Of a DNA stretch of 64,000 bases, positions 24,122 through 58,723 are shown piece after piece. Position 1 is the stretch's first letter; every line of letters begins with the position of its first letter. The position numbers and the translations under genes are program-made. The stretch is from IMG/VR virus record IMGVR_UViG_3300046534_001898. The stretch is one strand, 5' to 3'. The notes below the pieces were generated by a model. The model was not told the origin of the DNA. It was given only the letters and a program-made list of their open reading frames with translations, and did not search any database. The DNA comes from an uncultured virus (IMG/VR IMGVR_UViG_3300046534_001898) (taxonomy: Duplodnaviria; Heunggongvirae; Uroviricota; Caudoviricetes).

Positions 24122-24126
24122 CAAAT

Positions 24127-30784: not shown

Positions 30785-30892
30785 GTTCCTATAGCTCAGT
30801 TGGTAGAGCAGATTGTGGATTAAATGGTTTTGAAAACCGCCCTTGAAAAAGGGGAGCCAGTCAGGTCGCAAGTTCAAGTCTTGCTGGGATCA
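30785..30892 (+). ncRNA. tRNA-like RNA with a structured anticodon loop of about 40 nt
   Basis: Canonical D (gctc-agttggta-gagc) and T arms; gattg/cagtc stem encloses two small hairpins. Confidence 0.65.
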
Positions 30893-31391: not shown

Positions 31392-31475
31392 AATTTTTTT
31401 GGTTTCTATGAAACTTTTACTATCTTTGTTGCGTTATAAAGAAACAGAAAATAAATTTTTGCTATATTTAAAAAC

Positions 31476-31568
31476 ATGAACACAATTAACAACATATCTA
31501 CATGGTCATCTTCAAGATGGAGTTCGAGACAGTCTCGAAGCGATCAAGGTATGTCAAATTTTTTGTGA
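31476..31568 (+). CDS. Putative attenuator leader peptide, Ser/Trp/Arg-rich (30 aa)
   Basis: MNTINNISTWSSSRWSSRQSRSDQGMSNFL, lying between a promoter motif and a terminator. Confidence 0.85.
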   Translation: MNTINNISTWSSSRWSSRQSRSDQGMSNFL

Positions 31569-31592
31569 TGATAGCATAAAATTAAACGATAT

Positions 31593-31627
31593 AAAAAAGC
31601 CTTGGTCATTACGACTGAGGCTTTTTT
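31593..31627 (+). terminator. Attenuator terminator upstream of the Ser/Arg/Trp tRNA operon
   Basis: aaaaaagccttggtc/gactgaggctttttt; the 5' arm can also pair with leader segment gatcaaggt (31542-31550). Confidence 0.85.
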
Positions 31628-31643
31628 GCGTTTAAGATAATTT

Positions 31644-31727
31644 GGAGATGTGACAGAGCGGAAATGTGCCTGTTTTGAAAATAGAGACTTGTATATTGCA
31701 ACGGGGGTTCGATTCCCTCCATCTCCG
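31644..31727 (+). tRNA. tRNA-Ser(UGA)
   Basis: Cloverleaf with long variable arm, loop ttTGAaa. Confidence 0.85.
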
Positions 31728-31800
31728 CAAATGGAATAAAAAGTTATTCCAATTGCGATAGTTTTAGATATTACCGCATATTTATGTAGAAATATATAAT

Positions 31801-32199
31801 ATGAAAGAATGTCTAAGTTGCAAAAGTGAATTAAAAAAGGATACGCAGAAATACTGCTCTTATCAATGTCAGAATGATTATCAAAGAATGAAAAAAGTAA
31901 ATCTTTGGTTAGAGGGAAGGCATGATGGTATGAGAGGTAAAACCGCAACAGCCATGTGGATAAAGTGGTATCTTATTAAACAAAATGGAGAAAAGTGCAT
32001 GGAGTGCAATTGGTGTGAAAGAAATGAACACACTGGAAATATTCCTATAGAACTTGAACATGTTGATGGAGATTTCACTAATAATAAAATTGAAAACTTA
32101 AAATTGTTATGCCCAAATTGTCACTCTCTTACTGGGACTTATAAAGGGGCTAATAAGAAGAAAGGAAGACCACGATCTAAATATTATCGTGGCACTTAA
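31801..32199 (+). CDS. HNH endonuclease inside the tRNA array
   Basis: C..C...ELEHVDG...NN..ENL.LLCPNCHS. Confidence 0.92.
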   Translation: MKECLSCKSELKKDTQKYCSYQCQNDYQRMKKVNLWLEGRHDGMRGKTATAMWIKWYLIKQNGEKCMECNWCERNEHTGNIPIELEHVDGDFTNNKIENLKLLCPNCHSLTGTYKGANKKKGRPRSKYYRGT

Positions 32200-32202
32200 C
32201 AA

Positions 32203-32292
32203 GGAGGGGTTATCCGAAAGATTCTGGGTAGCGGAGCTGGCTTTGAACCCCAGTTGTCTTACGACTTGAGGGTTCGAATCCCTTCCCCTCCT
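32203..32292 (+). tRNA. Atypical tRNA with an ambiguous anticodon (Ser UGA or Gln UUG)
   Basis: ggagggg/cccctcc acceptor, 9-nt loop ctttgaacc, long variable arm. Confidence 0.55.
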
Positions 32293-32350
32293 CTTTTATA
32301 AGCCAGAGGGCTTATATATTGACATTATAAGTCTGGTGGCTTATAAATTT

Positions 32351-32433
32351 GGAAGATTGACAGAGCGGAAATGTGCCTGTTTCGAAAACAGAGGCTTGCT
32401 ACTGCAACGGGGGTTCGATTCCCTCATCTTCTA
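32351..32433 (+). tRNA. tRNA-Ser(CGA)
   Basis: Loop ttCGAaa, long variable arm. Confidence 0.85.
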
Positions 32434-32504
32434 CCGATATAACCTAATGAGGTTATAATTGAATAATATGCATTGATAAGAGCATAATTGAAGTATTGAA
32501 TTAT

Positions 32505-32592
32505 AGAGGTATGGCAGAGTGGTAATGTACTTGCTTGCTAAGCAATGGTCTGTCTAACGGCAGCGGGGGTTCGATTCCCTCTACCTCTACCA
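32505..32592 (+). tRNA. tRNA-Ser(GCU)
   Basis: Loop ttGCTaa, long variable arm, encoded CCA. Confidence 0.88.
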
Positions 32593-32593
32593 T

Positions 32594-32677
32594 AGTAGAT
32601 TGACAGAGCGGTAATGTGCTTGCTTGGAAAGCAACGGCTTGTATTTTGCAACACTGGTTCGATTCCAGTATCTACTA
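32594..32677 (+). tRNA. tRNA-Ser(GGA)
   Basis: Loop ttGGAaa, long variable arm. Confidence 0.85.
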
Positions 32678-32684
32678 CTAAATT

Positions 32685-32758
32685 GGTCTCATAGCTTAAC
32701 TGGACAAAGCATCAGATTTCTAATCTGAGGAGTCGGGGTTCGAGTCCCTGTGGGATCA
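32685..32758 (+). tRNA. tRNA-Arg(UCU)
   Basis: tcaga-ttTCTaa-tctga. Confidence 0.9.
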
Positions 32759-32858
32759 CTAATATCTGAGAAGGTTGTTATTTTTAACACTTTTCTCAGA
32801 TGGAATAATGAAGATAGATAATCGGACGCTTTCCGATTATCTATTAAAAAATTGACAT

Positions 32859-32938
32859 GGGGGTGTAACCGAGGTATTTTTCTAAATTGCTATCCGTAAT
32901 TGAAGTTGAAAATGGGGGTTTGAATCCCTCCGCCCCTT
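32859..32938 (+). ncRNA. Degenerate tRNA-like element
   Basis: gggggtg/cgcccct acceptor and a T arm; no canonical D or anticodon arm. Confidence 0.45.
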
Positions 32939-32968
32939 CTAAAGCTCTCTAAAAGTAGAGAGCAACAC

Positions 32969-33052
32969 ACTGCGGCTACTCATTGGTGAGATAGAAGGTC
33001 TCCAAAACCTTTGCCCGTAAGGGATGTGTCGGTTCGACCCCGACTCGCAGTG
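32969..33052 (+). tRNA. tRNA-Trp(CCA) with a long variable arm
   Basis: aaggt-ctCCAaa-acctt, ccc-gtaa-ggg variable stem, G73. Confidence 0.78.
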
Positions 33053-33058
33053 CAAAAC

Positions 33059-33129
33059 ACAGGTGTAGTTCAATGGTAGAATAGCGGTCTCCAAAACCGT
33101 TGATGGGGATTCGAATTCCTCCACTTGTG
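33059..33129 (+). tRNA. tRNA-Trp(CCA)
   Basis: gcggt-ctCCAaa-accgt, G73. Confidence 0.92.
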
Positions 33130-33148
33130 CAAATTTAGGGTCAGATTT

Positions 33149-33188
33149 TGAGTAAACCCTAAAATAACGTTATTTTAGGGTTTACTCA
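33149..33188. repeat. Perfect 40-bp palindrome between tRNA genes
   Basis: tgagtaaaccctaaaataacgttattttagggtttactca equals its own reverse complement. Confidence 0.95.
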
Positions 33189-33204
33189 GTTTTTGACATT
33201 AAAA

Positions 33205-33291
33205 GGTCTCATGGTAGAACTGGATATTGCACCACCCTCCTAAGGTGGCGACCCGAAAGGGCAACTGGGGGTTCGAATCCCTCTGAGATCA
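33205..33291 (+). tRNA. tRNA-Arg(CCU) with a long variable arm
   Basis: ccacc-ctCCTaa-ggtgg, ccc-gaaa-ggg variable stem. Confidence 0.78.
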
Positions 33292-33334
33292 CAAAAGTTT
33301 TTTGTACATTTGCATTTGGAAAAAAAGTTAGAAG

Positions 33335-34672
33335 ATGGCATATTTAATATTAGAAGGTGAAGGTGAAAATACGTTGGTGCATGAGGATGATTTAAAGTCT
33401 TTCGTGGCTAAAGGTCGTCTTGTATTTAGCATTAATACTGAAAACTTTGATGAGGCAAAAAAAGTGTATAACAATTACCTAGACACTTACTCTGAAAAGA
33501 TTGATATTTCAAAAATTAAAACAACACCTCCAAATATGGAATTTGGTTTTTGTGTCTACGGAGAGCCTTCTCAGGAGATTATAAATTGGGCAGGTGTTCA
33601 TGACTTTAAATTAGAGCCATCAGGCAAGTTTACCAATATTCTGATACCAGAAGACTTTAATCTATTTGAGTGTCTCCAGAAGCCTTCATTTCCCTTCTAT
33701 TTAGATGGTTTCTCTCCCAACCTAAACAAGGAATTACACTTTGGTCATTTTACCAATTTTATTGTGGCTAAAGCGATTCATTGTTTAACCTCAATGAAAC
33801 CCATTGCCATTCTTGGTGATTCCTTAGGGACTCCAGAACAGCATCAAGAAAACCTTAAGCTTGTAAAACAATACTATCAAAAATACGATTATAATCCTGA
33901 GTTATTTTTTGCTTCTGAAATGAAGCTTAAAGATACTTCTATTCTAAAAGAGGGTGAAGGAAAATATGAAGGAACAAAGGTTTTTGATCTAGGTGAAGAA
34001 AAGCAGGTTGGAGTAAAGTCTAACGGCTCTACTTCTTATTTCTATCAAGATATTGCATTTGCTCAGGAGCTTGATAACCCTACTTTGGTTATGACGGGAA
34101 CCGAGCAGAAAGAACACTTCCAGAAAGTATCTCAAATCAACCCTAATGTATCTTATAAAGGTCTGGGTTTGGTTAAACTCAAAACTCAAGATGGAGTTGA
34201 GAAGATGAGTTCTCGTTTAGGTAATACCATCTTCATGAAAGAGGTTATTAAAAACCTAGAGACTGAGTTTGTTGACCCGAAACTTTCGTACAATATTGTG
34301 GCGGGAAAAATCCTTAACTATAAAGTTGTTTCGGAAAAGATTGTAGTTGAAGAAGAGCTTTCTCAACACGATAAGTCTGAGGGTCTTTATATTAGTTATA
34401 CCTGCGCTCGTTTGAAGTCAGCTGGCTGTGAGGTGGTTGATGTTGAGCTACAGGATCACAAGTTAGTTCATGCGTTGATTATGGCTCAGAAACAAATAGA
34501 ACCACATACTTTCTTAAGGGCTGTTTTAGTTTATTGTAAGGAGATCAATAATTTGTATCAAAATCATATAATCAAAGATAATCCAAAGAATAAAGAAATG
34601 TTTACTCAGAAGCTTGCTCAATTAGAGAAGGCTATTCAGTATCTAGGTCTTTATAGTGTTGATCGAGTTTAA
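33335..34672 (+). CDS. argS: Arginyl-tRNA synthetase (compact)
   Basis: FSPNLNKELHFGH (HIGH motif), KSNGSTSYFYQD, KMSSRLG, YISYTCAR. Confidence 0.88.
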   Translation: MAYLILEGEGENTLVHEDDLKSFVAKGRLVFSINTENFDEAKKVYNNYLDTYSEKIDISKIKTTPPNMEFGFCVYGEPSQEIINWAGVHDFKLEPSGKFTNILIPEDFNLFECLQKPSFPFYLDGFSPNLNKELHFGHFTNFIVAKAIHCLTSMKPIAILGDSLGTPEQHQENLKLVKQYYQKYDYNPELFFASEMKLKDTSILKEGEGKYEGTKVFDLGEEKQVGVKSNGSTSYFYQDIAFAQELDNPTLVMTGTEQKEHFQKVSQINPNVSYKGLGLVKLKTQDGVEKMSSRLGNTIFMKEVIKNLETEFVDPKLSYNIVAGKILNYKVVSEKIVVEEELSQHDKSEGLYISYTCARLKSAGCEVVDVELQDHKLVHALIMAQKQIEPHTFLRAVLVYCKEINNLYQNHIIKDNPKNKEMFTQKLAQLEKAIQYLGLYSVDRV

Positions 34673-35289
34673 GATTCAGAAGAGTGATTTATTCCACCTC
34701 TTTGGCAAATCACTCCAAAGTAATCGTTGTAAAAAACATCTTGTTGATGTCCGTTTTTGAATTTGATAACAAAAGATGATTCACGGCTTGGTGTCCAGAT
34801 ATCTTCAATGTCTTCGGAACCATTGTTGATCATGTCAACAACTACTTCAATAGGCAAGTCTTTACTAAGTTCTTCAGGCATATCTGAACCCATTGTCTCT
34901 TTGATTGACCTGCTACTATCGTAGTACATGTTTAGTTCGTATTTTCCACTATCCATTCTGTAAATCTGAACATGAAGTAAATTTTTTGCTGGCTCACCAT
35001 TTCTGTTTAGTTCAAAAGAATTTCTTTTAGTTTGACCGTATGTAATTCCCCCAACACCAAACTGAAACAATTGTTCATCATTAATCTCGTATCCTTTTTT
35101 TGACAAAAATTCTTCCACTTCACTTAATGCTTCCGATAGTGTGTTATGGTATATCTCAAAATCACTTGATGAAACATTAGATTCTTTTATAATCTCTTTA
35201 TACTGATTATGAGAGATTACACCAGCAAGCATTTTTGATCTTGCTGCTTCTTTGATTAAGGAATTGTTGCTCATGACATTGTTTTTCAA
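34669..35289 (-). CDS. Hypothetical protein, putative late gene
   Basis: ORF preceded by CTATTTAT on the minus strand. Confidence 0.6.
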   Translation of the reverse strand: MKNNVMSNNSLIKEAARSKMLAGVISHNQYKEIIKESNVSSSDFEIYHNTLSEALSEVEEFLSKKGYEINDEQLFQFGVGGITYGQTKRNSFELNRNGEPAKNLLHVQIYRMDSGKYELNMYYDSSRSIKETMGSDMPEELSKDLPIEVVVDMINNGSEDIEDIWTPSRESSFVIKFKNGHQQDVFYNDYFGVICQRGGINHSSES

Positions 35290-35989
35290 TAAATAGGGTA
35301 TAATTTATGATTCATAAAACACAATACTTTTTGACTTAGATAAAGCCTCAAAATATGTGCTGTACCCAATGTCTGAATACGTATTGTCGGAAAAATAGAT
35401 ACTGACATGGCTATTATAAGAGTCAGAGCCAATAGCTTCTATCCTTTTGTCTGATGAATTAATCATTTCTATAATCTCTTCCGTAGAGAATTTATCTCTT
35501 ATGTATTTTCTAATTTCTTCCATTACCAATCACATTTGAAGGATTTAATATTTGCTTTCATGAGTATGCTCCCATATTCAATGAATTCTTTAATGTATTC
35601 TTCTCGTTCTTCTTTTGGGTAATTCTCTTCTCCCCACTTAGGGTCTTCAAGAATCATATAAACATCTTCAAAAGAGTAGTGAAGTATATCATATGTATCA
35701 TATCGATCCATATGATCACCGTCTATCCATTCTCTATATTCAGGAGCTTTTTCTCTTAATTCGAATAAATCATCAGCATGAGCTTTTTCGCCATTCTTAA
35801 ACCATCGGAGTATCTTTTGTTCTTCAGGCATATCGAATTTTAAGATTTGCTTATTAATCTTTCTTTTCTCTTTCTCTAACCCTCTGATTTGCTTATCAAT
35901 ACCAGAGATTTTGTCTTCTAGTTCTTTTATTTCTTTCATACAACAAATATAGCAAACTTTTTATCTATTTACAAGAAAGCTTTTATACT

Positions 35990-37120
35990 ATGAACCTTAA
36001 GGAATCAATCAAAAACCTTGTTCACAATAAGGTTGTGAATGAAATTGATTGGGATGGGGATTTTCAGGATGTTAAAAAATCCTGTATTCCACCCGCTCAA
36101 TTGAAACAACAGTTACAAGGAGTACTTGACCGTCTGGCTCTACCTGCCAATAAGAGAGGGGAGTTGCCATTGAATAGACCAATCATCGGAAAGAAATACA
36201 TTCACCAAGATGAAGAGGGTGAAATTGATGTGCAAGCTTTTATTGAAGAGATTACAGCTATTCCTACTAAGTTGATTTCACAGAATGGAAAGATGGAAAA
36301 AACATCGCAAGGAGATGTCTGGGCTGTCAATACAGGGATTCCTGCATTGAACGGAATTGTATATGATATTTCTGGTAAGGAATTTTATCAAGTCAACACC
36401 TGCCCCGGTGCTGGATCATGTGCTGCTGTTTGTTACGCCAGAAAAGGATCGTTCGTTCGTTTTGATGCCGTATCAAGACAGTTGACTCAAAGGCTTAATT
36501 TTATGTTAAATGATCCTCAGTCATTTGAGGCTATCATATATCTGGAATTAAAAAGACTTTGTATTGTAAAAAATTCAAAAGGTATTAAACTTCTCATGCG
36601 TTGGAATGATGCAGGAGACTTCTTCACCAAAAAATATTGGGATATTGCCCACAACGTGACTAAGAGGCTTTTGTCGGAAGGTCACGATTTTTTTTCTTAT
36701 GCTTACACTAAAATGGGTGACTATGCTGGTGATATCTCTAAAGATATTCTAGTAAACTTTTCTCGTGACGCAAACAAGAGAGAGAAGGATAAGGTTGACA
36801 TTGATAAAGTAAAGGCATCTACTATTGAAACAAAAGATGTATTTCAGGATTTATTTGTTAAAGGTAAGGGTGCGCATTTCCAAAAAGATGATCAAGGGAA
36901 GCCAATGTTTGTTGAACCTCAAGGTCAAGCAAAGCAGGAGTTGAAGAATCGTTTAGCTAAAAAACATGATCTTCCAGTAGATTCTATTGTTTATCAGGAT
37001 GAGCTTCCTCAAGAGGAGCAAGGAAAAAATCAGTTTAACCTTATCGTTCTTCCATCGGGAGAATCAGATTTAGGTGCGCATCGTGAAGATGTTCAAGTGT
37101 CATTCTTATTGATTCATTAA
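35990..37120 (+). CDS. GP88-like Cys-cluster protein
   Basis: TCPGAGSCAAVCYA, RWNDAGDF, YAYTK. Confidence 0.7.
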   Translation: MNLKESIKNLVHNKVVNEIDWDGDFQDVKKSCIPPAQLKQQLQGVLDRLALPANKRGELPLNRPIIGKKYIHQDEEGEIDVQAFIEEITAIPTKLISQNGKMEKTSQGDVWAVNTGIPALNGIVYDISGKEFYQVNTCPGAGSCAAVCYARKGSFVRFDAVSRQLTQRLNFMLNDPQSFEAIIYLELKRLCIVKNSKGIKLLMRWNDAGDFFTKKYWDIAHNVTKRLLSEGHDFFSYAYTKMGDYAGDISKDILVNFSRDANKREKDKVDIDKVKASTIETKDVFQDLFVKGKGAHFQKDDQGKPMFVEPQGQAKQELKNRLAKKHDLPVDSIVYQDELPQEEQGKNQFNLIVLPSGESDLGAHREDVQVSFLLIH

Positions 37121-37121
37121 T

Positions 37122-39779: not shown

Positions 39780-39799
39780 TAATTAGAGACCAATACAAC

Positions 39800-40609: not shown

Positions 40610-40660
40610 ATTTTTGTATTTGAAAACAAATGTAAGTCTTTTTTTTGGTTATTTATCAAT

Positions 40661-42459: not shown

Positions 42460-42719
42460 GGTTATTTACATAAAGTATAAACCTTTTAAAACTAAACATT
42501 ATGCACGAAGGAATCATTATCGGAGCGATTGGAGTAATCGTAATTATCGCTGTCGTACTTACTATTAAGGTAAGAAAAAGAAATAAGTAATTTGTTTACA
42601 ATTACTTATTATTGATTCTGAAATATCTTTCTATTTTTAGATAATGAAATCAGAGAAAAATATCAGAATCGATTTGAGCAAAGTAGTGTATATCACTCTT
42701 ATGCTTGTAGTGTTGGCAA

Positions 42720-45342: not shown

Positions 45343-46230
45343 TTGCGTTTAATAAGTATGTCACTCTCAAGAAAATATGGTCAAAACGGTAAGACGTATC
45401 ACGTTCCTTACTCAAAAGGTACTGATTCTACCGATAGGAAGAATTGGGACTACTGGGATAATATTATCAAAGGAGTAACACAAGGAGAACAGTCTTGGAC
45501 AACTTTGAATCTAGAAAGTGGTCAGATGGAACGAGTTGAGTCTCAAGCTCAATCTCCAATCAAAAACTTAATCTTTACAGAAAAGTTAGACGGTCAGGGA
45601 AATTGCTTTAACCAGTATGGTTTATTTGCACGTTCTCATGGCGCACCTTCGGAACTCCCTTGGGATAGAACTTTAAGAGAGAAGTGGGCGTTGATTAAAA
45701 ACGATCTAGCTTCTTATGATCTTGAATTGTTTGGGGAGAACATGTATGCTTGTCACTCAATTGAGTATCTTAGGGTAGAGCAAGACTATCATGTATTCGC
45801 TGCCAGAATTAAAGACAAATGGCTTTCATGGGAACAAGTGAAAGAGTTTGCTTTCCTTTTTGATTTCCCACATGCTCCAGAATTCTCTTTGAGACCATCT
45901 TCTGATTTTAAAAATCAAGGAGAACTTCAAGCTTATGTTGAGAGTTTAATGGGTCAGCAAAGTGTTTATGGATCAATTGATTTTCATTCGAAAGAGTTTG
46001 ATCAAATGGAGGGAGTTGTTTTTAGGAACACGGAAGAATATCACGTAAATAACTTTGTTCATAATGTCTTTAAGATTGTTCGACAATCACATGTTAAGAC
46101 AGATGAGCATTGGACAAAAAATTGGAGACCAGCATTTAAACTCTGGCAGCTTCATTTAGAGTTAGTTAAAGAAACCGCTACGGATGAAGAGTATAGACAA
46201 GCTATTATTAATTTAGAAAAGAAAAGGTGA
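45343..46230 (+). CDS. ATP-dependent RNA ligase (Rnl2-like family); real start probably the ATG at 45358
   Basis: KTYHVPYS, TEKLDG, FGEN, EGVV, KIVR..HV.TDEHW. Confidence 0.85.
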   Translation: MRLISMSLSRKYGQNGKTYHVPYSKGTDSTDRKNWDYWDNIIKGVTQGEQSWTTLNLESGQMERVESQAQSPIKNLIFTEKLDGQGNCFNQYGLFARSHGAPSELPWDRTLREKWALIKNDLASYDLELFGENMYACHSIEYLRVEQDYHVFAARIKDKWLSWEQVKEFAFLFDFPHAPEFSLRPSSDFKNQGELQAYVESLMGQQSVYGSIDFHSKEFDQMEGVVFRNTEEYHVNNFVHNVFKIVRQSHVKTDEHWTKNWRPAFKLWQLHLELVKETATDEEYRQAIINLEKKR

Positions 46231-48429: not shown

Positions 48430-48440
48430 TAAACTAAAAG

Positions 48441-50553: not shown

Positions 50554-51220
50554 TACCTGAGAGAATCATATCCCAAGAGGAACTAAAAGATAAGTGGGAA
50601 CATAATCTAACGGTTGGTGATCTTCTTGATTATATCGAGAAGAACAACCTTCCGAGAGATGCTAAAGTTCTTTCTCAAAGAATCGAAGATAGGTATTTTG
50701 AGACAGGAGGCTGGGGTGTTGTTGTGAAGGAGGGTCATTGGTTTGATTCAATGGTAGAGAGAAACAAGGATATTGATGCTGGTGAATATGATGACCCAGA
50801 AGAGTATCCTTTATTGGAGAGCAAAAGACCTGCAAAGTTTCCTGAAGATGATTTGGATCAATTAATGGAGCAGTATCACCCTGTGTGGTGCGGTGTTAAG
50901 TATAAAGATGATGATAATCTGTATTTAGATTTACATTATTGAAACAAAATGAATTTTATTGCGTTATAATGATAAGAATGAAAGTAGGAGACAGATTAAA
51001 ATTCAAAAACTATTGGGACTCAAGAGATAGCGGTACAGCTGTTGTTATTGATGTCGAAGATACGATTTTTCAACCTTTTGATGAGCAAGCGGAAGAAGAC
51101 TTAGCTTATACGATTAAGGATGAAGAGACAGGGAGAGAATTTGAAGTAGATGATGATGATTACTACGTAGAATTAATTTGAACTTTGGGAAGTGCTTCGG
51201 CACTGGTTAATAAATAAAAG

Positions 51221-51253
51221 AAAAAGGCTCTGGAAATTTCCAGAGCCTTTTTT
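51221..51253. terminator. Bidirectional intrinsic terminator between convergent genes
   Basis: aaaaaggctctggaa/ttccagagccttttt. Confidence 0.85.
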
Positions 51254-51271
51254 GATTGTATCAAGTTTTTT

Positions 51272-51904
51272 TTAATCTTCTTTTCGGTCTACCCAATCAA
51301 AAGCCTCGCACTCTGTGCAATTAGAGTTGGTTTCTTTAAAGCTAGCTTCCTTACCACAGCTTTCACAGTAGTATTCGGAGAGACCTGCAAATTCTCTTAA
51401 GCTAGATTGAAAAGATGGGAAAGGATATCCAGCATCCTGAGTCTCATCGTTAGAGTAGTTTCCAGCTTGTTCTGGATTCTTTTCAATTGTGTGATTGTAT
51501 ACGGAAGGGTCAATTTCTGCATCGACATCTCCAGTCATAGCATCCAAATCCAAATCTAACATCCCTTTATCCATTGCTGGCATATCGTTTAGTTGATCTA
51601 GTGGCATAGGTGCGATTTCATCATCAAAGTGATCGAGAGAGTTTTCCATCGGCATATCAGCAAAATCAGAGTCTTCTACTCTTTTAGAGGCAAATGTAAC
51701 TTCGTCTGCATTAACGTTTTTGCTTTCACCATCTGGATTGGAAATAAAGACTTCATCGCCAACTATATAGTCTACGTGCCACTCTCCTAAAGCAGGGTGT
51801 TTGTAGTGGACAAAATCTCCTTTGTTAATTTGTGAAACTGGAGATACAGCTTCTCTAAGAAGGTTCTCTACATCACTCACTATTTGATTAACTTTCCTTG
51901 TCAT
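51272..51904 (-). CDS. Acidic hypothetical protein with a C-terminal Zn-ribbon
   Basis: CESC...CTEC, preceded by TATTTAT. Confidence 0.55.
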   Translation of the reverse strand: MTRKVNQIVSDVENLLREAVSPVSQINKGDFVHYKHPALGEWHVDYIVGDEVFISNPDGESKNVNADEVTFASKRVEDSDFADMPMENSLDHFDDEIAPMPLDQLNDMPAMDKGMLDLDLDAMTGDVDAEIDPSVYNHTIEKNPEQAGNYSNDETQDAGYPFPSFQSSLREFAGLSEYYCESCGKEASFKETNSNCTECEAFDWVDRKED

Positions 51905-52735
51905 AATTTGGCGTTTCTAATAAATATGTAGATATTTGTATAAGATGAAAATTCATACACCAATTCCTAGTTACGCTAAATCATTGTTGGAAGCAAGTTC
52001 TTACAATAAAGACGATCATCATTTGATCTATTCTTATTTTAGAATGATAGATGCTCAAAAATATCCTTATAAGAATTTGAGAGAAATCAATTTTTTTAAT
52101 GAAGGAAAAGTAGCTTTAACATTCTCTTGCATGCAGGAGAGTAGTCTGTTTTCTATTTCTGAAATTCAGAAATTAATGGATTATTACATTTACACAATTA
52201 GAAATCTAGATATTGAGATACTTGAGTTGATTGAAGCGGAAGAGGTCGAGTTTGATGATGGAGATATTTCAATGCGCATGATACATTGCTTAGTATATTA
52301 TTTCAAGTTCTATGTCTGCAATAAAAAGAAGCCTTGGTCAAAAAGAGATGTTGCGAATGAAGTATTCGTTGAAAATAATTTAACAGCAAAAGAGTGGAAC
52401 ATAAACGAGACCCGAAATACGGGAAGATATTAAAGTGTGCATCGGAAGATTGTAAGAAAGAATCTTTTTATATTGAAGGATTTGAGTCTTGGACAGAGCA
52501 TAAAGGAGAATATTTTTGCTTTAAATGCTCTGTTGATAATGTGGATATTGATTGGAAAAATTGTTTTCTAACTTATAGGTCAGTAGAGCTAGAAAGAAGA
52601 AGAGAACTTGTTTCAAAACAGGTTAAAAAACAGTTAGTTTTAGATAGTTATTCCAAGTTAACTTAAACCCTTTATTATGGTTATTTTTAATTAAAAATAA
52701 CTTGATTTTCATGTATTAATTTACTACATTAATAC

Positions 52736-53953
52736 ATGAATGATAAGCTATATATCCCTGAGAGGATTAACGTAGGATACCAACTAAGAGAGGATACTTA
52801 CACAGGAAAATTAGCCTATGTTATCTATTGGGATAGCAAAGGTAAACTAAGAAAAGAAACAGGATGGAATAGTTGGAGGAATCGTCCAGAAGATGTTCAA
52901 TCAGGCGAATACGACTATAAAACAAGAACGTACTCAAACGAAACACTTTACGGAGATCAAGTAAAAGCTCAAGAGTTCGTCAACGAACCAACGGAAGGGT
53001 TTGTCCTTAACAAAGGAGTTGGTGGACAAAGACAATCGTGGGGATGGAATGCTAGAAATGAATACATTCGTGTTTATGATCCTAGAGACTTTGAATTTGA
53101 AATTAGTGTTGCAAATTTATTGTTCATTCTACAGGAATCAAACTCAATCAAAGGTAAAGGTTTAGAGGGTAAATTTGTTTACTCATGGGAAGGTAAAGAA
53201 TTAGTTTTACTTCCAGCTGAATCTTTCGAACACCAGACATCATCAAGACACACAAACCTTCAATCTAAGAAGGTCACTAGAAAAGATATGCTAGCTGGTT
53301 GCCAGTATGTTTCTAAAGATGGGTCAGAACTTGTTTACTTGGGAAGACACGATTATATGAGTCATGACAGGAACAGATACTCTTACTATAATTCTGGAGT
53401 TAATAAGGTTAAGGGTCATGTTTTCTATGATCTTGGAGCGGAAGAAGATGAGTGTCAATATCAGTTTCACAAAGGGTTTACAAAACTAGCTGAAAAAGTT
53501 ACTACTGAAGCTGCGGGAAACTATGCAGACATATTAGAGGAATTTTTGGAGTCAAAGTATGGTTGTCTTGTGAAAGATGTTCAGTACAAAAAAGTAGACT
53601 TGGATTGGAGTGAGTTGATGACAAAAAAAGATTCACATGGATGGAAAGAATACCCTGAAAAGGAACTTTTTATTGTTAATGGAGCCAAGGTAGCTTTATC
53701 AACGCTTAATTACAGCGATGCGAAGGATAGCTATTATCATAAGGCTAACTCAAGAACTAAAAACCCACACTTCGAGGTTAGTAGAAATTATGTGATCTCA
53801 TTTAAAGATGGGAGCATCGTTAAAAATTACGCTAACAGAGAGGATACTTATTATACCCCAGACGAAGCTTTCTCAGCTGTTGAGGCATATGATATGAACA
53901 TCATACTAGAGAGTGGGAAAGAAATAACATACAACGAATACTTTAACGATTAA
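52736..53953 (+). CDS. Phage hypothetical protein
   Basis: 405-aa ORF; no function recognised. Confidence 0.65.
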   Translation: MNDKLYIPERINVGYQLREDTYTGKLAYVIYWDSKGKLRKETGWNSWRNRPEDVQSGEYDYKTRTYSNETLYGDQVKAQEFVNEPTEGFVLNKGVGGQRQSWGWNARNEYIRVYDPRDFEFEISVANLLFILQESNSIKGKGLEGKFVYSWEGKELVLLPAESFEHQTSSRHTNLQSKKVTRKDMLAGCQYVSKDGSELVYLGRHDYMSHDRNRYSYYNSGVNKVKGHVFYDLGAEEDECQYQFHKGFTKLAEKVTTEAAGNYADILEEFLESKYGCLVKDVQYKKVDLDWSELMTKKDSHGWKEYPEKELFIVNGAKVALSTLNYSDAKDSYYHKANSRTKNPHFEVSRNYVISFKDGSIVKNYANREDTYYTPDEAFSAVEAYDMNIILESGKEITYNEYFND

Positions 53954-53957
53954 AATT

Positions 53958-54413
53958 ATGTCAACTAAACAAACAAACGACACAAAAGTACAAGCACTAC
54001 TAAAAGTGGTGGAAGGAAAGAAGGAAGAAGTAAAAAGATTATCCAAGAAACCATCTTGGAGAACTAACTGCGCTTTTACTTTCGATGACAAAACTGGAAT
54101 GAGCATGAAAATGCTTAATCTAAATACTGCTAATAAAGAGGAAGCAATCATTCAAGCTCTTTCTTGGTTAATACAAAAAGAGTCCGCTTATTCTCAAGCT
54201 AGAGAAGAATTAGGTTTGGACGAAAAAGAATTCCAATGGAATGGCTTTTTAGTGTCGGATTGGAGAGAGGATTTCAAGAGTAGATTGGAAAGAATTACTA
54301 TCGAGGACAAGAAAAAAGAACTTGAAACTCTTGATAAGAAGCTTTCAAAACTCCTTTCGGAAGAGGCTAGGACTAAGAACGAGCTTGAAGAGATAGAAAA
54401 TCTTCTAAAGTAA
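53958..54413 (+). CDS. Coiled-coil hypothetical protein
   Basis: 151-aa ORF 4 nt after the previous gene. Confidence 0.6.
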   Translation: MSTKQTNDTKVQALLKVVEGKKEEVKRLSKKPSWRTNCAFTFDDKTGMSMKMLNLNTANKEEAIIQALSWLIQKESAYSQAREELGLDEKEFQWNGFLVSDWREDFKSRLERITIEDKKKELETLDKKLSKLLSEEARTKNELEEIENLLK

Positions 54414-54539
54414 CTAACTGATAATCAGCAAGATATAAAAAAGTTTCAAAAATAGTTTGGTAATGAGGAAACTTTTTATATCTTTGTTGCGTTATTAAGA
54501 AAGAGAAATAAAAATTTACACATACTTAGAAACAAGAAA

Positions 54540-54644
54540 ATGAAAACAATGAACACAAATATCGCAATGACTTATGCCCCGATGGGGAATGGTTATGATG
54601 CTGCGCCCGATTATGGCGATAGTAGCGGTACAGGTGTGTTCTAA
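54540..54644 (+). CDS. Putative attenuator leader peptide, Tyr/Ala/Pro/Gly/Asp-rich (34 aa)
   Basis: MKTMNTNIAMTYAPMGNGYDAAPDYGDSSGTGVF, lying between a promoter motif and a terminator. Confidence 0.85.
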   Translation: MKTMNTNIAMTYAPMGNGYDAAPDYGDSSGTGVF

Positions 54645-54670
54645 GTTTTGAACATATAAATGACTTGAAG

Positions 54671-54707
54671 AAGTCCTGTACCAACTAAAAGGTACAGGAC
54701 TTTTTTT
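54671..54707 (+). terminator. Attenuator terminator upstream of the Tyr/Pro/Gly/Asp/Ala tRNA operon
   Basis: aagtcctgtacc/ggtacaggactt plus a T tract; leader segment ggtacagg (54627-54634) is perfectly complementary to the 5' arm. Confidence 0.9.
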
Positions 54708-54755
54708 ATGTCCAAAAATGAGATTGAAAAGTTGATCTCAATAAAAAAAATACAT

Positions 54756-54838
54756 TGTGAGGTGGCTGAGTGGTTAAAAGCGCCAGACTGTAAATCTGGT
54801 CTCTTCGGAGTTCGGGGGTTCGAATCCCTCCCGCACAA
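54756..54838 (+). tRNA. tRNA-Tyr(GUA)
   Basis: ccaga-ctGTAaa-tctgg, long variable arm. Confidence 0.9.
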
Positions 54839-54901
54839 CAGAAATGTTCTTTGACGTATTGGAGTGATTAAAATGGGAAGGTAACCATCCTTCCCAAAAA
54901 T

Positions 54902-54974
54902 CTGGATGTAGCTCAGTTGGCAGAGTGCTTGCTTTGGGAGCAAGAAGCCGCAGGTTCGAGTCCTGCTATCCAGA
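54902..54974 (+). tRNA. tRNA-Pro(UGG)
   Basis: cttgc-ttTGGga-gcaag, C1:G72, A73. Confidence 0.92.
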
Positions 54975-54980
54975 CTTAAT

Positions 54981-55064
54981 CGAGATGACAATTTGGGTAC
55001 GCCCATTATTGGCGGTACTAGGATTGATCATCTTAGTTTTCGGGTTCGAATCCCTACATTTCGA
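54981..55064 (+). ncRNA. Degenerate tRNA-like element
   Basis: cgagatg/catttcg acceptor, T loop ttcgaat, enlarged D region, loop ttgatca. Confidence 0.45.
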
Positions 55065-55068
55065 CAAT

Positions 55069-55213
55069 CAAAGTATAGCTTATTGGTAAAGCGCCCCTTG
55101 GAGAATGGTAGGTTCGATTCCTCCCAGCGTGACTAAAAAAAATATCATCACGTTGTAGTTTATTGGTAAAACAATGTTTAGGAGAATGGTAGGTTCGAAT
55201 CCTCCTGCTTTGA
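55069..55213 (+). ncRNA. Pair of tRNA-Pro-like units with reciprocally swapped acceptor strands
   Basis: caaagta pairs with tgctttg of unit 2; cagcgtg of unit 1 pairs with cacgttg of unit 2. Confidence 0.6.
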
Positions 55214-55224
55214 CAAATTAAAAT

Positions 55225-55309
55225 GGGGGTACGCCAGAGTTGGAGAGCTTGGAGCGGTCTGTAAAACCGTTGGCGAAAGCCTGAGTAGGTTCGAATCCTA
55301 TTACCCTCA
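55225..55309 (+). tRNA. tRNA-Tyr(GUA)
   Basis: gcggt-ctGTAaa-accgt, long variable arm. Confidence 0.85.
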
Positions 55310-55314
55310 CTTAT

Positions 55315-55388
55315 CTTGATGTAGCTCAGTTGCGTAGAGTACCTGCCTTGGAAGCAGGGAGTCGCTGGTTCGAGTCCAGCCATTGAGA
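55315..55388 (+). tRNA. tRNA-Pro(UGG)
   Basis: cctgc-ctTGGaa-gcagg. Confidence 0.9.
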
Positions 55389-55399
55389 CAAATAAAAAT

Positions 55400-55474
55400 C
55401 TAGTTGCGATACATTGGCGTGTTTACCTCACTTGGACTGAGGGTTGCTTGAAGGTTCGACTCCTTTCAACTAGA
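55400..55474 (+). tRNA. tRNA-Pro(UGG) with an atypical D arm
   Basis: cctca-ctTGGac-tgagg, ctagttg/caactag acceptor. Confidence 0.75.
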
Positions 55475-55479
55475 CAATT

Positions 55480-55553
55480 GCAGGAGACGCATAAATGGTG
55501 GTGCGCCAGCCTTCCAAGTTGGAATAGAGTCGGTTCGATCCCGTCCTTCTGCA
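55480..55553 (+). tRNA. tRNA-Gly(UCC)
   Basis: ccagc-ctTCCaa-gttgg. Confidence 0.8.
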
Positions 55554-55558
55554 CAAAT

Positions 55559-55631
55559 GCGGTATTCGTATATTGATTGATTACGTCTGGTTTCCATCCA
55601 GAAGAGGGCAGTTTGATTCTGTTATACCGCT
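55559..55631 (+). tRNA. tRNA-Gly(UCC)
   Basis: tctgg-ttTCCat-ccaga, U73. Confidence 0.8.
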
Positions 55632-55709
55632 CAATAAGTCACATTGTCTAGGCATGGCGCAATGTGAGGAAGGTTAGGGTGAAAACCCTATTTGTAAGAC
55701 TGTCTGCAT

Positions 55710-55781
55710 GCGGAAGTAGCTCAGAGGCAGAGCATTAGGTTTCCAACCTGAGGGTCGAGATTTCGAAATTCTTCTTCCGCT
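55710..55781 (+). tRNA. tRNA-Gly(UCC)
   Basis: ttagg-ttTCCaa-cctga, U73. Confidence 0.85.
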
Positions 55782-55822
55782 CAAATGTGTGCATATGGGG
55801 ACAGTCGCTCTGTCTCCGCCAT

Positions 55823-55895
55823 GCGGTATTCGTATATTGGTTGATTACACCACATTGCCAATGTGGAGAGGGCAGTTCGATTCTGCTATACCGCT
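55823..55895 (+). tRNA. tRNA-Gly(GCC)
   Basis: ccaca-ttGCCaa-tgtgg, U73; paralogue of the 55559 gene. Confidence 0.87.
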
Positions 55896-55928
55896 CAAAA
55901 AGTTATTAGTTCTTTAAAAACTAAAAAT

Positions 55929-56001
55929 AGTCCAGAGGTGTTAATGGTAACACGCCTCCCTGTCACGGAGGAAATTGCGGGTTCGATTCCCGTGTGGACT
56001 G
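55929..56001 (+). tRNA. tRNA-Asp(GUC)
   Basis: cctcc-ctGTCac-ggagg, G73. Confidence 0.9.
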
Positions 56002-56120
56002 CAATTAAAAGGTGTTCGGATTCGAACGTATGCAAAGAAGAAGCGATGATTGTACATATTAAATCGTGAAGTACCTTAGTGTTAGGGCGCAAGCCAAACA
56101 CAGCACCTTTTTCTTTATTC

Positions 56121-56197
56121 GGTTTTATATGCTGCTCTGGTGAGTGGATTTGCCCTGTCACGGCTCAAAAACGAGGGATCGTAACCCTCTAAGACCG
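56121..56197 (+). tRNA. Degenerate tRNA-Asp(GUC)
   Basis: gcc-ctGTCac-ggc, ggtttta/taagacc acceptor, atypical T loop. Confidence 0.55.
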
Positions 56198-56201
56198 CTA
56201 T

Positions 56202-56273
56202 AGTGTCGTAGTTTAAAAAATAGAATTCCTCCGTTAGAGGGGGCGGGTATAGGTGAGAGTCCTGTCGATACTA
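56202..56273 (+). ncRNA. Degenerate tRNA-like element
   Basis: agtgtcg/cgatact acceptor, 6-nt middle loop, T loop tgagagt. Confidence 0.45.
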
Positions 56274-56277
56274 CTAT

Positions 56278-56351
56278 AGTGATGCAGCATATTGGTGTAT
56301 GGCGCTACGTTGTCAGCGTAGAGATTGCGGGTTCGAATCCCGTCATTACTG
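56278..56351 (+). tRNA. tRNA-Asp(GUC)
   Basis: ctacg-ttGTCag-cgtag, G73. Confidence 0.87.
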
Positions 56352-57164
56352 CAAATTATTAACTTTATAAAATTAGAAAACATGGATGACTTGGGGGCGA
56401 TAAGCTGAATAAAATCGAAAACAGAAAAAAAACAATTGGATCACGAAACCATAGGAAGCTTAAGAAATATTCCGACAACTTTAATGAGATGTTTGATTTC
56501 TTTTTGAAATCATCTCATAGTGGATTACTGGAGTTTTGCGGCTCAGGTGTTAGTGTTGAATCCGACCCGAATTCTCCAGACGGCAAATTTTGCTTTAGGA
56601 AATATGAAAACGGTCATAATGATTGGCATGTCACTCGTCATCCTAATATTTTGTATCATGTGGTGAGGGGTAAAAAGAGTTTCGGACTTTGGGTAAAACA
56701 ATGGTCGGAAGGAATTGCAGAATGTTCTTTTACAAAAGAAGAAATCATTCAAGAATTCACAGATAGAGATTTAGTAATCCCTAAAGGATTGATGAAGAGT
56801 TTTGATGACTCAATTCGGAAGGAAAAACAAAAACGTTATGATAGAGATTTACGAGAATTGGAAAGAACTAAATGATATTGAAATTTGCAACAATGTTGTT
56901 GCCGACATTGAAGTTGGATTAGTTTTAATCGAAAAGAGAAGCAAAAGGAAATGTATTATAGATGGTAAATCTAAAAACACCATTTCCATTTGGGGAACAA
57001 AAACTTCAAAAGAAGGAATCAATTGCGCTCAGTGGACTCAGTTAGATGGGAAGCACGGAGCAGTTGCTAACTTCTTTAAGTCTGATGAAGTGATTGAAGA
57101 TGTTTTAGCTTGGAAAGATGCCAAAATTAGAAAAGTGGCGCAGAAGTATAGAAAATAATAAAAT

Positions 57165-57238
57165 GGGGACGCATGTGCCAAGGCTGGCGAGGATGCTTTG
57201 CAAGTAACCTGTGGTGAATTCGATTTTCACCGTCTCCA
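57165..57238 (+). tRNA. tRNA-Ala(UGC)
   Basis: G3:U70, loop ttTGCaa. Confidence 0.8.
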
Positions 57239-57398
57239 CTAAAACAAAAGATGATAGTTACCGCATTGGCTGACTGACGAGAGCTACGTCAATAGTTATA
57301 ACAAGGGTTGTGTAGCGTTTTGATTTTAAACCTTAGCGGGTTTAAGGGATTTGAATCATAAGAACGACTTGTATTGCTTTTTACTTTTGTTTTTATTT

Positions 57399-57455
57399 GG
57401 GGAGGTATAAGAGGTGTAAACGGTATACCCAAGGGTTCGACTCCCTTCCTCTCCA
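57399..57455 (+). ncRNA. Anticodon-less mini-tRNA with Ala identity elements (G3:U70, A73)
   Basis: ggggagg/cctctcc acceptor, aaggg-ttcgact-ccctt T arm, a single middle hairpin. Confidence 0.7.
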
Positions 57456-57485
57456 CTAATAGTAGAAATAATAATTTATAAACAC

Positions 57486-57558
57486 GGGGCTGTAGCTAAA
57501 CTGGCTTAGCACCTCCCTTGCACGGAGAAGCATGTGGGTTCGACTCCCATCAGCTCCA
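57486..57558 (+). tRNA. tRNA-Ala(UGC)
   Basis: ggggctg/cagctcc acceptor, ctcc-ctTGCac-ggag. Confidence 0.92.
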
Positions 57559-57571
57559 CAACATTTTAATT

Positions 57572-58645
57572 ATGAAACAAATTACGTTATTTCCTATGCA
57601 ATCTACAGATGACTTGCATAGAGTTAAATTGGGAATTGATCCCACAAGCGATAAGCTCCACTTGGGTCATTTGGCTCCTTTAAGAATTGCACGAAAGATG
57701 CAGGAACGAGGAAAGCACTTGACATTGGTTTTAGGTACGTTTACAGCTCAAATGGGCGATCCTTCGGGACGAGATAAAGCTAGACCTATTTTACCAGCGG
57801 AAGAGGTTAAGCAGAACGGAGAGAAGCTTTTAGAACAAGCTTCTAAAGTTTTGATCGAAGGTTTTGATGTTTTTAGAAATGGAGATGTTTTCGATAAGAT
57901 GACAGTTCCAGAATTAATGGCATTGGTTTCTAATTTTACATTGAAGAGAATTACATCGAGAGATGCTTTTCAGCTTAGAATTGAAAACAACCAGTCAATT
58001 TCTATTCAGGAATTGATTGTCCCAGTTCTTCAGGGTTTTGACAGTGTTTCCTTGAAGACTGAAATCGAGATTGGAGGTTCTGATCAGTTGTTCAACTTTC
58101 AATTGACCAGAGAATTGCAACAGATGCATGGTCTTGAACCAGAGGTTTGTGTTATGACTCCTATCTTGAGTGGGACTGACGGTAGGAAGATGTCAAAATC
58201 TTTAGGGAATTGCATCTTTTTGGATGAGACTCCTGAAAACATGTTTGGTCTTTGTATGAGTATTTCGGATGAAGTTATGGATGAGGAATTTATTCCAATA
58301 TTAACTGATCTAAAAGACTTGGAAGAAAGTCCAATAAAAAGAAAGATGCAAATGGCGTTTGATATCGTGGAACAGATTCACGGAATTAATGCGGCTAGAT
58401 TGGCTCAGAAGCATTTTGAATCTACAATTCAGAATAGACAGCTTCCGCAAGACATTAAAACAACCAATCACAAAGATATCATTGATATCATCAAAGAAGT
58501 TAGAAACTGTAGTGGTTCTGAAGCTATGAGGTTGATTAAAGGTGGTGGAATTAAGATTGATGGAAAGAAGGTCGAGGAGCGTTGTGAAGTCAATCAAGGT
58601 GTTGTTGTAAAGGTTGGTAAGAGAGACTTTGTAGAAGTCATCTGA
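57572..58645 (+). CDS. tyrS: Tyrosyl-tRNA synthetase
   Basis: GIDPTSDKLHLGH, GDPSGR, LQGFD, GGSDQ, KMSKS and a C-terminal S4 domain. Confidence 0.96.
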   Translation: MKQITLFPMQSTDDLHRVKLGIDPTSDKLHLGHLAPLRIARKMQERGKHLTLVLGTFTAQMGDPSGRDKARPILPAEEVKQNGEKLLEQASKVLIEGFDVFRNGDVFDKMTVPELMALVSNFTLKRITSRDAFQLRIENNQSISIQELIVPVLQGFDSVSLKTEIEIGGSDQLFNFQLTRELQQMHGLEPEVCVMTPILSGTDGRKMSKSLGNCIFLDETPENMFGLCMSISDEVMDEEFIPILTDLKDLEESPIKRKMQMAFDIVEQIHGINAARLAQKHFESTIQNRQLPQDIKTTNHKDIIDIIKEVRNCSGSEAMRLIKGGGIKIDGKKVEERCEVNQGVVVKVGKRDFVEVI

Positions 58646-58649
58646 TAAT

Positions 58650-58723
58650 GGGGGCGCATGTGCCAAGGCTGGCGAGGATGCTTTGCAAGCAACCTGTGGT
58701 GAATTCGATTTTCACCGTCTCCA
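58650..58723 (+). tRNA. tRNA-Ala(UGC), near-identical to the 57165 gene
   Basis: G3:U70, loop ttTGCaa. Confidence 0.8.

Follow-up and report, generated by a model that had tools for sequence, protein, structure and literature searches.

The DNA analyzed here, a 64,000-nucleotide stretch of IMG/VR record IMGVR_UViG_3300046534_001898 that we refer to as the window, comes from a large uncultured phage (Caudoviricetes) and carries two units in which a promoter, a short leader open reading frame (ORF) and an intrinsic terminator directly precede an array of tRNA genes. We propose that both units are likely to act as transcription attenuators of the ribosome-mediated, leader-peptide type, each controlling entry into a tRNA array of the phage itself, and that the phage, to judge from the arrangement of the parts, probably makes a tRNA set only when ribosomes decode the corresponding codons slowly. 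Attenuation is supported because the match between leader and array recurs in relatives, the enrichment is specific to one reading frame, an antiterminator strand is present, an indel keeps the frame, and three positions in the pairing strands compensate for one another. An original prediction, made from the letters of the window, had described two tRNA units of common layout and interpreted them as attenuators read by ribosomes; every element that it listed is present, and evidence from relatives, reading frame, pairing and compensation bears its interpretation out as far as sequence can.

Architecture of the two units

Unit 1 (31398-31627, + strand) begins with a promoter at 31398-31428, with TTTG at -33 and TAtcTTTG at -7, that lies within a block (31398-31452) conserved with unit 2. 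Its leader ORF (31476-31568; 30 codons, MNTINNISTWSSSRWSSRQSRSDQGMSNFL) has the residues MNT as codons 1-3 and a regulatory cassette as codons 8-22 (31497-31541), and ends in TGA, which is followed in frame by a second TGA and a TAG. Region 1, the putative anti-antiterminator (31492-31507), pairs with region 2 in the minimum free energy (MFE) fold of the free RNA. Region 2, the putative antiterminator (31542-31554), contains GATCAAGGT (31542-31550), which pairs with the 5′ arm of the terminator (31599-31627; GCCTTGGTC / GACTGAGGC and T6). Just 16 nt separate this terminator from tRNA-Ser(TGA), the first gene of an array (31644-33292, + strand) that consists of Ser(TGA), an HNH ORF, Ser(CGA), Ser(GCT), Ser(GGA), Arg(TCT), two Trp(CCA) and Arg(CCT). 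Directly 3′ of the array is a gene for a 445-aa protein resembling arginyl-tRNA synthetase (ArgRS; 33335-34672, + strand).

Unit 2 (54456-54707, + strand) repeats this arrangement. The promoter (54456-54486; TTTG ... TAtcTTTG) is followed by a leader ORF of 34 codons (54540-54644; MKTMNTNIAMTYAPMGNGYDAAPDYGDSSGTGVF, stop TAA), in which MNT occupies codons 4-6 and the cassette codons 9-27 (54564-54620). Region 1 (54551-54565) pairs in the free-RNA fold with 54624-54641, which is region 2; the core of the latter, GGTACAGG (54627-54634), pairs with the terminator 5′ arm and repeats the 3′ arm letter for letter. After the terminator (54668-54707; AAGAAGTCCTGTACC / GGTACAGGACTT and a T-run) comes an array at 54756-56352 on the + strand, with tRNAs for Tyr, Pro, Tyr, Pro, Pro, four Gly and two Asp. 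Two unknown ORFs and then tRNA-like pieces lie between this array and tRNA-Ala(TGC) (57486-57559, + strand), the sole Ala tRNA 3′ of leader 2, and the gene for tyrosyl-tRNA synthetase (TyrRS) follows at 57572-58645 (+ strand), starting with ATG at 57572.

The pattern TTTG-N17-21-TAnnTTTG, which we take to be the Bacteroidota promoter consensus, occurs 15 times in the window against 3.0 expected, a count reached by none of 100 shuffles, and most of its matches lie 5′ of genes on the + strand. In the two units the aligned block extends from the -33 TTTG to about 20 nt beyond the -7 box, TTTG...TAnnTTTG included. The promoter 16-mer ATCTTTGTTGCGTTAT has exactly two copies in the window, at 31422 and 54480; with up to three mismatches there are 4 matches, against 0.95 expected. 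In sequencing run X8, three further contigs of a related strain share the promoter block only (31409-31472) and then diverge, one of them running on as unit 2 and one apparently passing straight into a tRNA without a leader. Several units of this phage lineage thus have the same promoter.

The leader ORFs begin 48 nt (unit 1) and 54 nt (unit 2) past the -7 box, in contexts that resemble those of the phage's own genes: neither start has a Shine-Dalgarno core, as in 41 of 42 long genes of the phage (a Shine-Dalgarno-like core stands upstream of just 1 of the 42 long ATG genes in the window), and the fraction of A at the start is 0.60 in unit 2 and 0.35 in unit 1, with a gene mean of 0.47. The terminators lie 23-30 nt beyond the leader stop codons. 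Promoters downstream of the terminators, which the original prediction had considered as a source of the tRNAs, would find no room in the 16 nt of unit 1, and the 48 nt between the unit 2 terminator and its first tRNA hold no match to TTTG..TAnnTTTG. Twelve strong terminators in the window, both strands counted, have a short ORF just 5′, and only those of units 1 and 2 precede tRNAs. A consensus terminator scan listed neither leader terminator, probably because an A-run and the T-run extend the stem and consume the tail; our own rule of a hairpin plus T-run found both.

Leaders match their arrays in amino-acid composition

The leaders are matched to their arrays at the level of amino acids. 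Leader 1 precedes tRNAs for Ser (four), Arg (two) and Trp (two) together with the ArgRS-like gene, and Ser, Arg and Trp make up 14 of its 29 residues (expected fraction 0.118, binomial p 1.4e-6). Leader 2 precedes tRNAs for Tyr (two), Pro (three), Gly (four), Asp (two) and Ala together with TyrRS, and these five amino acids account for 17/33 residues (expected 0.251, p 1e-3); both expectations are taken from how often the long ORFs of the window use each amino acid. Scored for the other unit's set, leader 1 has only 2/29 such residues and leader 2 only 2/33. The six frames of the window contain 306 ATG ORFs of 20-45 codons, and for its own set each leader ranks first among them.

Single-protein scans of IMG/VR with TyrRS or the ArgRS-like protein confirmed no relative. 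A profile of the ArgRS-like family yielded 40 IMG/VR loci from huge phages (37-50% identity), to which further tRNA regions from five of those records were added; about 50 loci were examined overall. Units were defined by structure only, as a G+C-containing hairpin with a T-run no more than 260 nt 5′ of a tRNA and an ATG ORF of 10-71 codons whose end is no more than 110 nt upstream. Of the 28 raw units so obtained, 25 were left once duplicates and units lacking an ORF had been set aside, and in 22 the stem had at least 9 pairs. Every leader was scored on every array, and the best candidate ORF was used for real and permuted pairings alike. The summed z of the 22 units for their own arrays is 81.7, compared with a permuted mean of 11.3 (sd 6.8, maximum 43.3), and none of 20000 permutations reaches it, nor does any when the window's two units are left out. 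The own array ranks first in 16 of the 22 units and at 2, 2, 2, 4, 13 and 17 in the remainder. The original prediction had called for such a scan with permuted pairings, and its outcome agrees with that account.

Individual leaders illustrate the range of the match. MKMITQQQQQNNIREVDR precedes three Gln tRNAs, MKTTLSLSLSLSLSLSGWTNRAM a Leu/Ser array, MKKYNAYQQYNQNQNQSSGLSVISPFEK an Asn/Tyr/Gln array, and MKQMINIVRISRRRSDVLSGLCPIVS tRNAs for Ile, Arg and Arg with ArgRS; the leader of locus L045, MNLNNNISTTTTNRWHRRTRTSQGLLSGHGML, precedes His/Arg/Arg/Thr tRNAs and ArgRS. The more distant phage G002 has three units with the same logic and different pairing sequences, two of which are counterparts of the window units: MKVTTTYRWSWRSSSSSSKRTSGPASILS, followed by Ser/Trp/Arg tRNAs and ArgRS, corresponds to unit 1, and MKKVMTYPVYTVAAPAMGDAGMGYAPDYSKGAGSLTIFMTKL, followed by Ala/Pro/Asp/Tyr/Gly tRNAs, corresponds to unit 2.

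Closer homologues were also found. The unit 1 homologue L086 (leader MNTINNISSRWSSRQSRSDQGMSSFL) precedes tRNAs for Ser, Ser, Arg, Trp and Arg; its leader is 12 nt shorter than that of unit 1 with the frame kept, in line with the expectation of the original prediction that the leaders are conserved, and the only ArgRS match found for L086 spans 27 C-terminal residues. The unit 2 homologue L101/L090 (leader MKTYNTNIAMTYAPIGNGYDAAPDYGDSSGAGVF) precedes Tyr, Pro, Tyr, Pro, Gly and Asp tRNAs. A third unit type, L095/L091 and L097/L099, has the promoter and MNT start of the window units and leaders rich in L/F/R(V), MNTVYNISRLLLVFFSLLLSRERSGMLYPNVCTI and MNTVYNITRLFLVFFRLLLPRERSGVLCPKLVRTS, which precede Leu/Phe/(Val)/Arg tRNAs. 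Sequence thus shows that the parts are present, that they can pair in alternative ways, that leader and array match in composition, and that these features are conserved.

These closer homologues and the third unit type come from a scan of metagenome contigs for the promoter core, with 22 loci found, 8 of them phage-like; the other 14 lack tRNAs and leaders and are apparently promoters that have the consensus in common with the units but are otherwise unrelated to them. A scan of IMG/VR with ATCTTTGTTGCGTTAT returned 27 loci, none with the context of a unit, which we take as chance matches.

The short ORFs might instead encode peptides with a function of their own, or owe their match to chance or composition. 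The permutations (0/20000) and the rank of 1/306 exclude chance. For a functional peptide there is precedent, in that some bacterial attenuator leader peptides are reported to act in trans (peTrpL). Homologous leaders keep their composition and not their residue order, however, and a nonsynonymous change in one of them follows RNA pairing (see below). We regard this explanation as the least probable of those considered here.

The match is confined to the reading frame

Across 24 leaders, the amino acids of the array account for 314 of 686 codons in frame, compared with 114/640 and 124/633 in the other two frames. Because the enrichment is found in frame only, reading by a ribosome is favored over direct pairing of the RNA with tRNA. 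The latter model, in which the leader RNA would bind tRNA anticodons in the manner of a T-box, free of the ribosome and with the apparent codons serving as specifier triplets, draws on the finding that 133 of 142 array anticodons have a cognate leader triplet, a mildly raised coverage compared with synonymous resampling (mean 127.4; 30 of 1000 as high). Against it, the triplets occupy a single frame from ATG to stop, and homologues preserve this frame despite the indel. Moreover, T-boxes use one specifier, not 14-17, and a search of Rfam families over positions 20000-64000 on both strands found no T-box or other riboswitch at E<=1. Direct binding is thus very improbable, and we return to the ribosome as the reader of the leader.

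Alternative RNA pairings and a proposed switch

The RNA from leader to terminator is far more stable than its dinucleotide shuffles (z -5.0 for unit 1 and -7.5 for unit 2; 0/200 as good in either). In the free full-length fold, a closed leader hairpin, formed by region 1 in the first codons and region 2 at the 3′ end of the ORF, stands next to the terminator. The pairing of regions 1 and 2 is seen in MFE and centroid folds, in L101 it loses one terminal pair, and in a ribosome-free co-transcriptional fold it is the pairing of region 2 with the terminator 5′ arm that prevails. This second pairing has an energy of -12.9 kcal/mol in unit 1, which 0/200 shuffles match, and in unit 2 it is matched by 1/200 shuffles. 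Across units, an antiterminator strand at a threshold of no more than 10/200 shuffles occurs in 15/21 units and in 6/8 further units (21/29), and its place is always within the final 1-59 nt of the ORF. The SG and GL residues that recur near leader C-termini are this strand in translation (CGGG/TGGG cores).

Comparison of the window with L101 shows the three strands of unit 2 changing together. Specifically, T>C at 54679 in the terminator 5′ arm is accompanied by A>G at 54694 in the 3′ arm and by A>G at 54630 in the ORF. Such joint change is the signature expected of a 5′ arm that pairs with either strand. The change at 54630 turns a Thr codon into Ala; this nonsynonymous position follows the pairing, and the peptide sequence therefore yields to RNA pairing.

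The switch was modeled with the RNA cut just 5′ of the terminator 3′ arm and masked by a ribosome, with an assumed footprint of -15 to +12 around the A site. In these folds the 5′ arm is almost wholly paired to the strand within the ORF (31542-31550 in unit 1; 54627-54634 in unit 2). The pairing persists with the ribosome at codons 1-18 in unit 1 (P>=0.88) and 1-26 in unit 2 (P>=0.91) and drops further on, and 10/14 cassette codons of unit 1 and 14/17 of unit 2 lie inside this permissive span.

Based on these features, we propose the following mechanism. Transcription would start at the Bacteroidota-type promoter, and a ribosome would start on the leader ORF, whose cassette in mid-ORF spells precisely the amino acids served by the downstream tRNAs. 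If the cognate charged tRNAs are scarce, as might result from starvation, host shut-off, tRNA damage or poor charging, decoding would be slow and the ribosome would stall on the cassette, covering region 1. Region 2 would then be free to capture the emerging 5′ arm of the terminator; no terminator would form, and polymerase would enter the array and probably the linked synthetase gene. If decoding is fast, the ribosome would cover region 2, the terminator would form and transcription would stop. It is also expected that in the absence of translation regions 1 and 2 would pair and the terminator would form. The product of the operon would relieve the stall, making each array a self-correcting supply loop. 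That the leader is translated, that the polarity and kinetics are as described in vivo, how far the transcripts reach and what pulls the trigger in nature are inferred; the predicted polarity, from stall to readthrough, follows from the position of region 2 inside the ORF, 3′ of most cassette codons.

The polarity could be opposite, or the units could sense translation status in general, with a ribosome that finishes the leader suppressing the terminator, arrays being on when translation is good, and the cassette secondary. The terminators do lie only 23-30 nt past the leader stops, one study reports that a translating ribosome represses terminators that lie within a few bases of the gene's end (PMC4824070), and our model for unit 1 is weak when the ribosome has arrived at the stop. 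A ribosome on the stop codon nevertheless would not reach across 23-30 nt, and positive feedback on tRNA supply would make little biological sense. Such a sensor also leaves unexplained the match of each cassette to the amino acids of its own array, the copy of the 3′ arm inside the ORF and the three-way compensation. On balance we consider it improbable and favor attenuation with readthrough upon stalling.

Several observations weigh against attenuation in this form. At equilibrium, the full-length RNA forms the terminator at every ribosome position (P=0.998), so in our model the switch must be kinetic, as in classical attenuators. A ribosome on the unit 1 stop codon leaves region 2 uncovered under the assumed footprint (P paired 0.99), and termination there would therefore require suitable timing, or regions 1 and 2 would have to pair again. 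The antiterminator threshold is missed by 8 of 29 units. The 22 units of the permutation analysis are phylogenetically non-independent, several types being common to G004 and G005, and three of them score low: L029 (z -1.3), which is probably the end of an ordinary gene, and L073 (-0.1) and L080 (1.1), which have 'ADCADE'-type cassettes against a high Asp/Glu/Ala background. Many of the 31 tRNA stretches in relatives have no unit of their own, and the same is true in the window of the tRNA cluster at 23.7-24.2 kb and of the tRNAs at 30785, 62115 and 63861. Finally, the sequencing runs that contain window DNA include no RNA run.

The codon level needs separate mention, as the original prediction had called the attenuators codon-matched. 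Array anticodons read 13/14 cassette codons in unit 1 and 14/17 in unit 2 (17/17 with relaxed U34 wobble), and 6/7 and 6/6 array anticodons, respectively, have a leader codon. Across 28 units, however, 318 of 362 codons are readable compared with a mean of 316.6 after synonymous resampling, and 425 of 1000 resamplings are as high; unit 1 also has one CGA codon that lacks a cognate array tRNA, and no AGG for Arg(CCT). Matching thus holds for amino acids, and at the level of codons beyond that it is unsupported by resampling.

The synthetase genes and the probable extent of the transcripts

The synthetase genes are probably co-transcribed with the gated arrays, as judged from their placement. 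The identity of TyrRS (57572-58645) is secure (TIGR00234, 242 bits against a cut-off of 114). Because leader 2 has four Ala codons, its unit points to a transcript that would reach tRNA-Ala at 57486 and hence TyrRS. The ArgRS-like protein (33335-34672) is short and divergent, with 38.8 bits for argS against a cut-off of 262 and a Pfam E of 4.5e-4. At E<=1e-5 there are 488 homologues; contigs of 100-700 kb carry many of them, and for several the source gives the name arginyl-tRNA synthetase. Six other phages have the ArgRS-like gene immediately 3′ of a gated array that contains Arg. A hairpin inside array 1 (33148-33189, + strand; 19 bp and T5), 5′ of tRNA-Arg(CCT), may serve to terminate transcription within the array or to process the RNA. 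It could stop transcript 1 before Arg(CCT) and the ArgRS-like gene, which weighs against a gated ArgRS.

Within array 1, an HNH-endonuclease-like ORF (31801-32199) is inserted between the first tRNA and the remainder. A contig of run X8 that is ~97% identical lacks it and has 68 nt in place of 536 nt, and the ORF is probably a mobile homing element. Leader 1 of that contig differs by a single change, A>T at 31500, which replaces Thr (ACA) with Ser (TCA). Also in array 1, the 85-nt tRNA at 32969-33053 has the anticodon CCA (Trp) and a long variable arm that is unusual for tRNA-Trp; its best Rfam score is tRNA-Sec-like, at 40 bits compared with a threshold of 47. Between array 2 and tRNA-Ala, the tRNA-like pieces lie at 57164-57240 and 57399-57458, the second of which matches the Rfam tmRNA model at its tRNA-like ends only (33.4 bits against a threshold of 47).

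The surrounding genome

Pfam assigns to the window a ribonucleotide reductase, a sigma-70 family factor, ClpB- and FtsH-like ATPases, an RNA ligase, RtcB and two aminoacyl-tRNA synthetase-like genes. A T4 RnlA-family ligase is indicated by an NCBIfam match below its cut-off. Three RNA-ligase or repair genes thus lie near the tRNA units, at 45343-46230 (RNA_ligase, PF09414), 59119-60261 (the sub-cut-off T4 RnlA-family match) and 60602-62098 (RtcB), which suggests investment in tRNA repair.

ARAGORN finds 23 tRNAs in the window and Rfam a few extra. Two Rfam matches missed by ARAGORN, at 30785-30892 (108 nt, 40.7 bits) and 63861-63989 (129 nt, 43.1 bits), are probably tRNAs with long insertions or introns. 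At 30446-30670, an RNA of ~170 nt lies 3′ of a promoter-like TTTG..TAtaTTTG, and its ends pair (GCAACG...CGTTGCCA) and its 3′ part resembles a T arm; it was not called by ARAGORN, and may be a small tmRNA-like or an expanded tRNA-like RNA. Two tRNAs with the amber-reading anticodon CTA, labeled Pyl by ARAGORN, are found at 23742-23815 and 24127-24199. They sit among tRNA-like pieces of ~55-60 nt (23660-24200) that apparently consist of acceptor stem and T arm and lack an anticodon arm. No leader unit lies 5′ of this cluster, and TAG terminates just 3 of 53 long frames in the window.

Close relatives of the phage were sought in INPHARED. Searching with the window by blastn returned tRNA-sized pieces only, with coverage of at most 5% in 20 records, and tblastn with the neighboring 405-aa protein or TyrRS returned distant phages and no close relative. 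Near-identical DNA is present in runs labeled as ice, sediment and marine metagenomes, several of which may be the source sample.

Implications and comparison with known attenuators

Why phages carry tRNAs has been debated for decades, and how phage tRNA genes are regulated is largely unknown. In recent reports, phage tRNAs have been linked to evasion of tRNA-cleaving defenses (PMC10264068, PMC11555353, PMC12409363). More speculatively, and with less confidence than for attenuation itself, the units could represent widespread, modular 'tRNA homeostats' of huge phages with Bacteroidota-type hosts. A single scaffold of promoter, MNT-type start and a region 2 that copies the terminator 3′ arm would accept any cassette, and each array with its linked synthetase would gauge the decoding speed of its own amino acids. 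During infection such units might sense the loss of host tRNAs, whether through shut-off or through anticodon-nuclease immunity, beside the three RNA-ligase and repair genes.

If attenuation is correct, tRNA supply would be metered block by block through direct feedback from the ribosome, and the sorting of huge-phage arrays by isotype would gain a regulatory rationale. The leaders would reveal operon boundaries and tRNA identities, and the question of when a phage needs its tRNAs would become testable with simple reporters. Exchangeable cassettes would provide a natural set of components from which to build sensors that report how well selected amino acids can be decoded.

A full-text search, with subscription journals largely outside its reach, found no published account of tRNA genes preceded by a leader-peptide attenuator, whether of phages or of other origin, in agreement with the original prediction, whose author had known of no described phage tRNA attenuator. 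Among the leader families of Rfam, Thr_leader scores 26.4 bits at 54532-54708 against a gathering threshold of 55, and unit 1 has no hit; the Thr_leader score, far below threshold, is not used as evidence here.

The closest known systems are the multivalent attenuators of enterobacteria, in which the ilvGMEDA leader contains Ile, Leu and Val codons and the thr leader Thr and Ile codons, with trp and his as further examples. Like these, the phage units combine a promoter with a short ORF that holds regulatory codons and with an intrinsic terminator, and their predicted 1:2, 2:3 and 3:4 pairings would exclude one another; a stall would likewise lead to readthrough, and several amino acids would be sensed at once. 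Unlike them, the phage units would gate tRNAs, together with synthetases, and not biosynthetic enzymes, so that the loop would close on decoding capacity. The phage leaders also list up to 5-7 amino acids, and their region 2 lies inside the ORF and not past its stop. Moreover, the units are phage-borne and modular, with one scaffold in which cassettes are exchanged along with the array.

Two further systems act on the translation apparatus itself. The pheST operon of E. coli is controlled through the pheM leader, whose cognate codons attenuate a synthetase gene; it resembles the phage units as a leader-peptide attenuator on a gene of the translation apparatus and differs from them in sensing one amino acid, in having no tRNA genes in the operon and in being bacterial. 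The T-box of Firmicutes binds uncharged tRNA directly through one specifier codon, independently of the ribosome. Here, too, the supply of charged tRNA is sensed and a terminator and antiterminator are switched ahead of synthetase and related genes, whereas the phage units, in which no T-box match was found, would be read by the ribosome in our model. The proposed mechanism is thus of a known kind; what is new is that tRNA arrays are its target, that the feedback closes on decoding, and that cassettes are exchanged together with the arrays they match.

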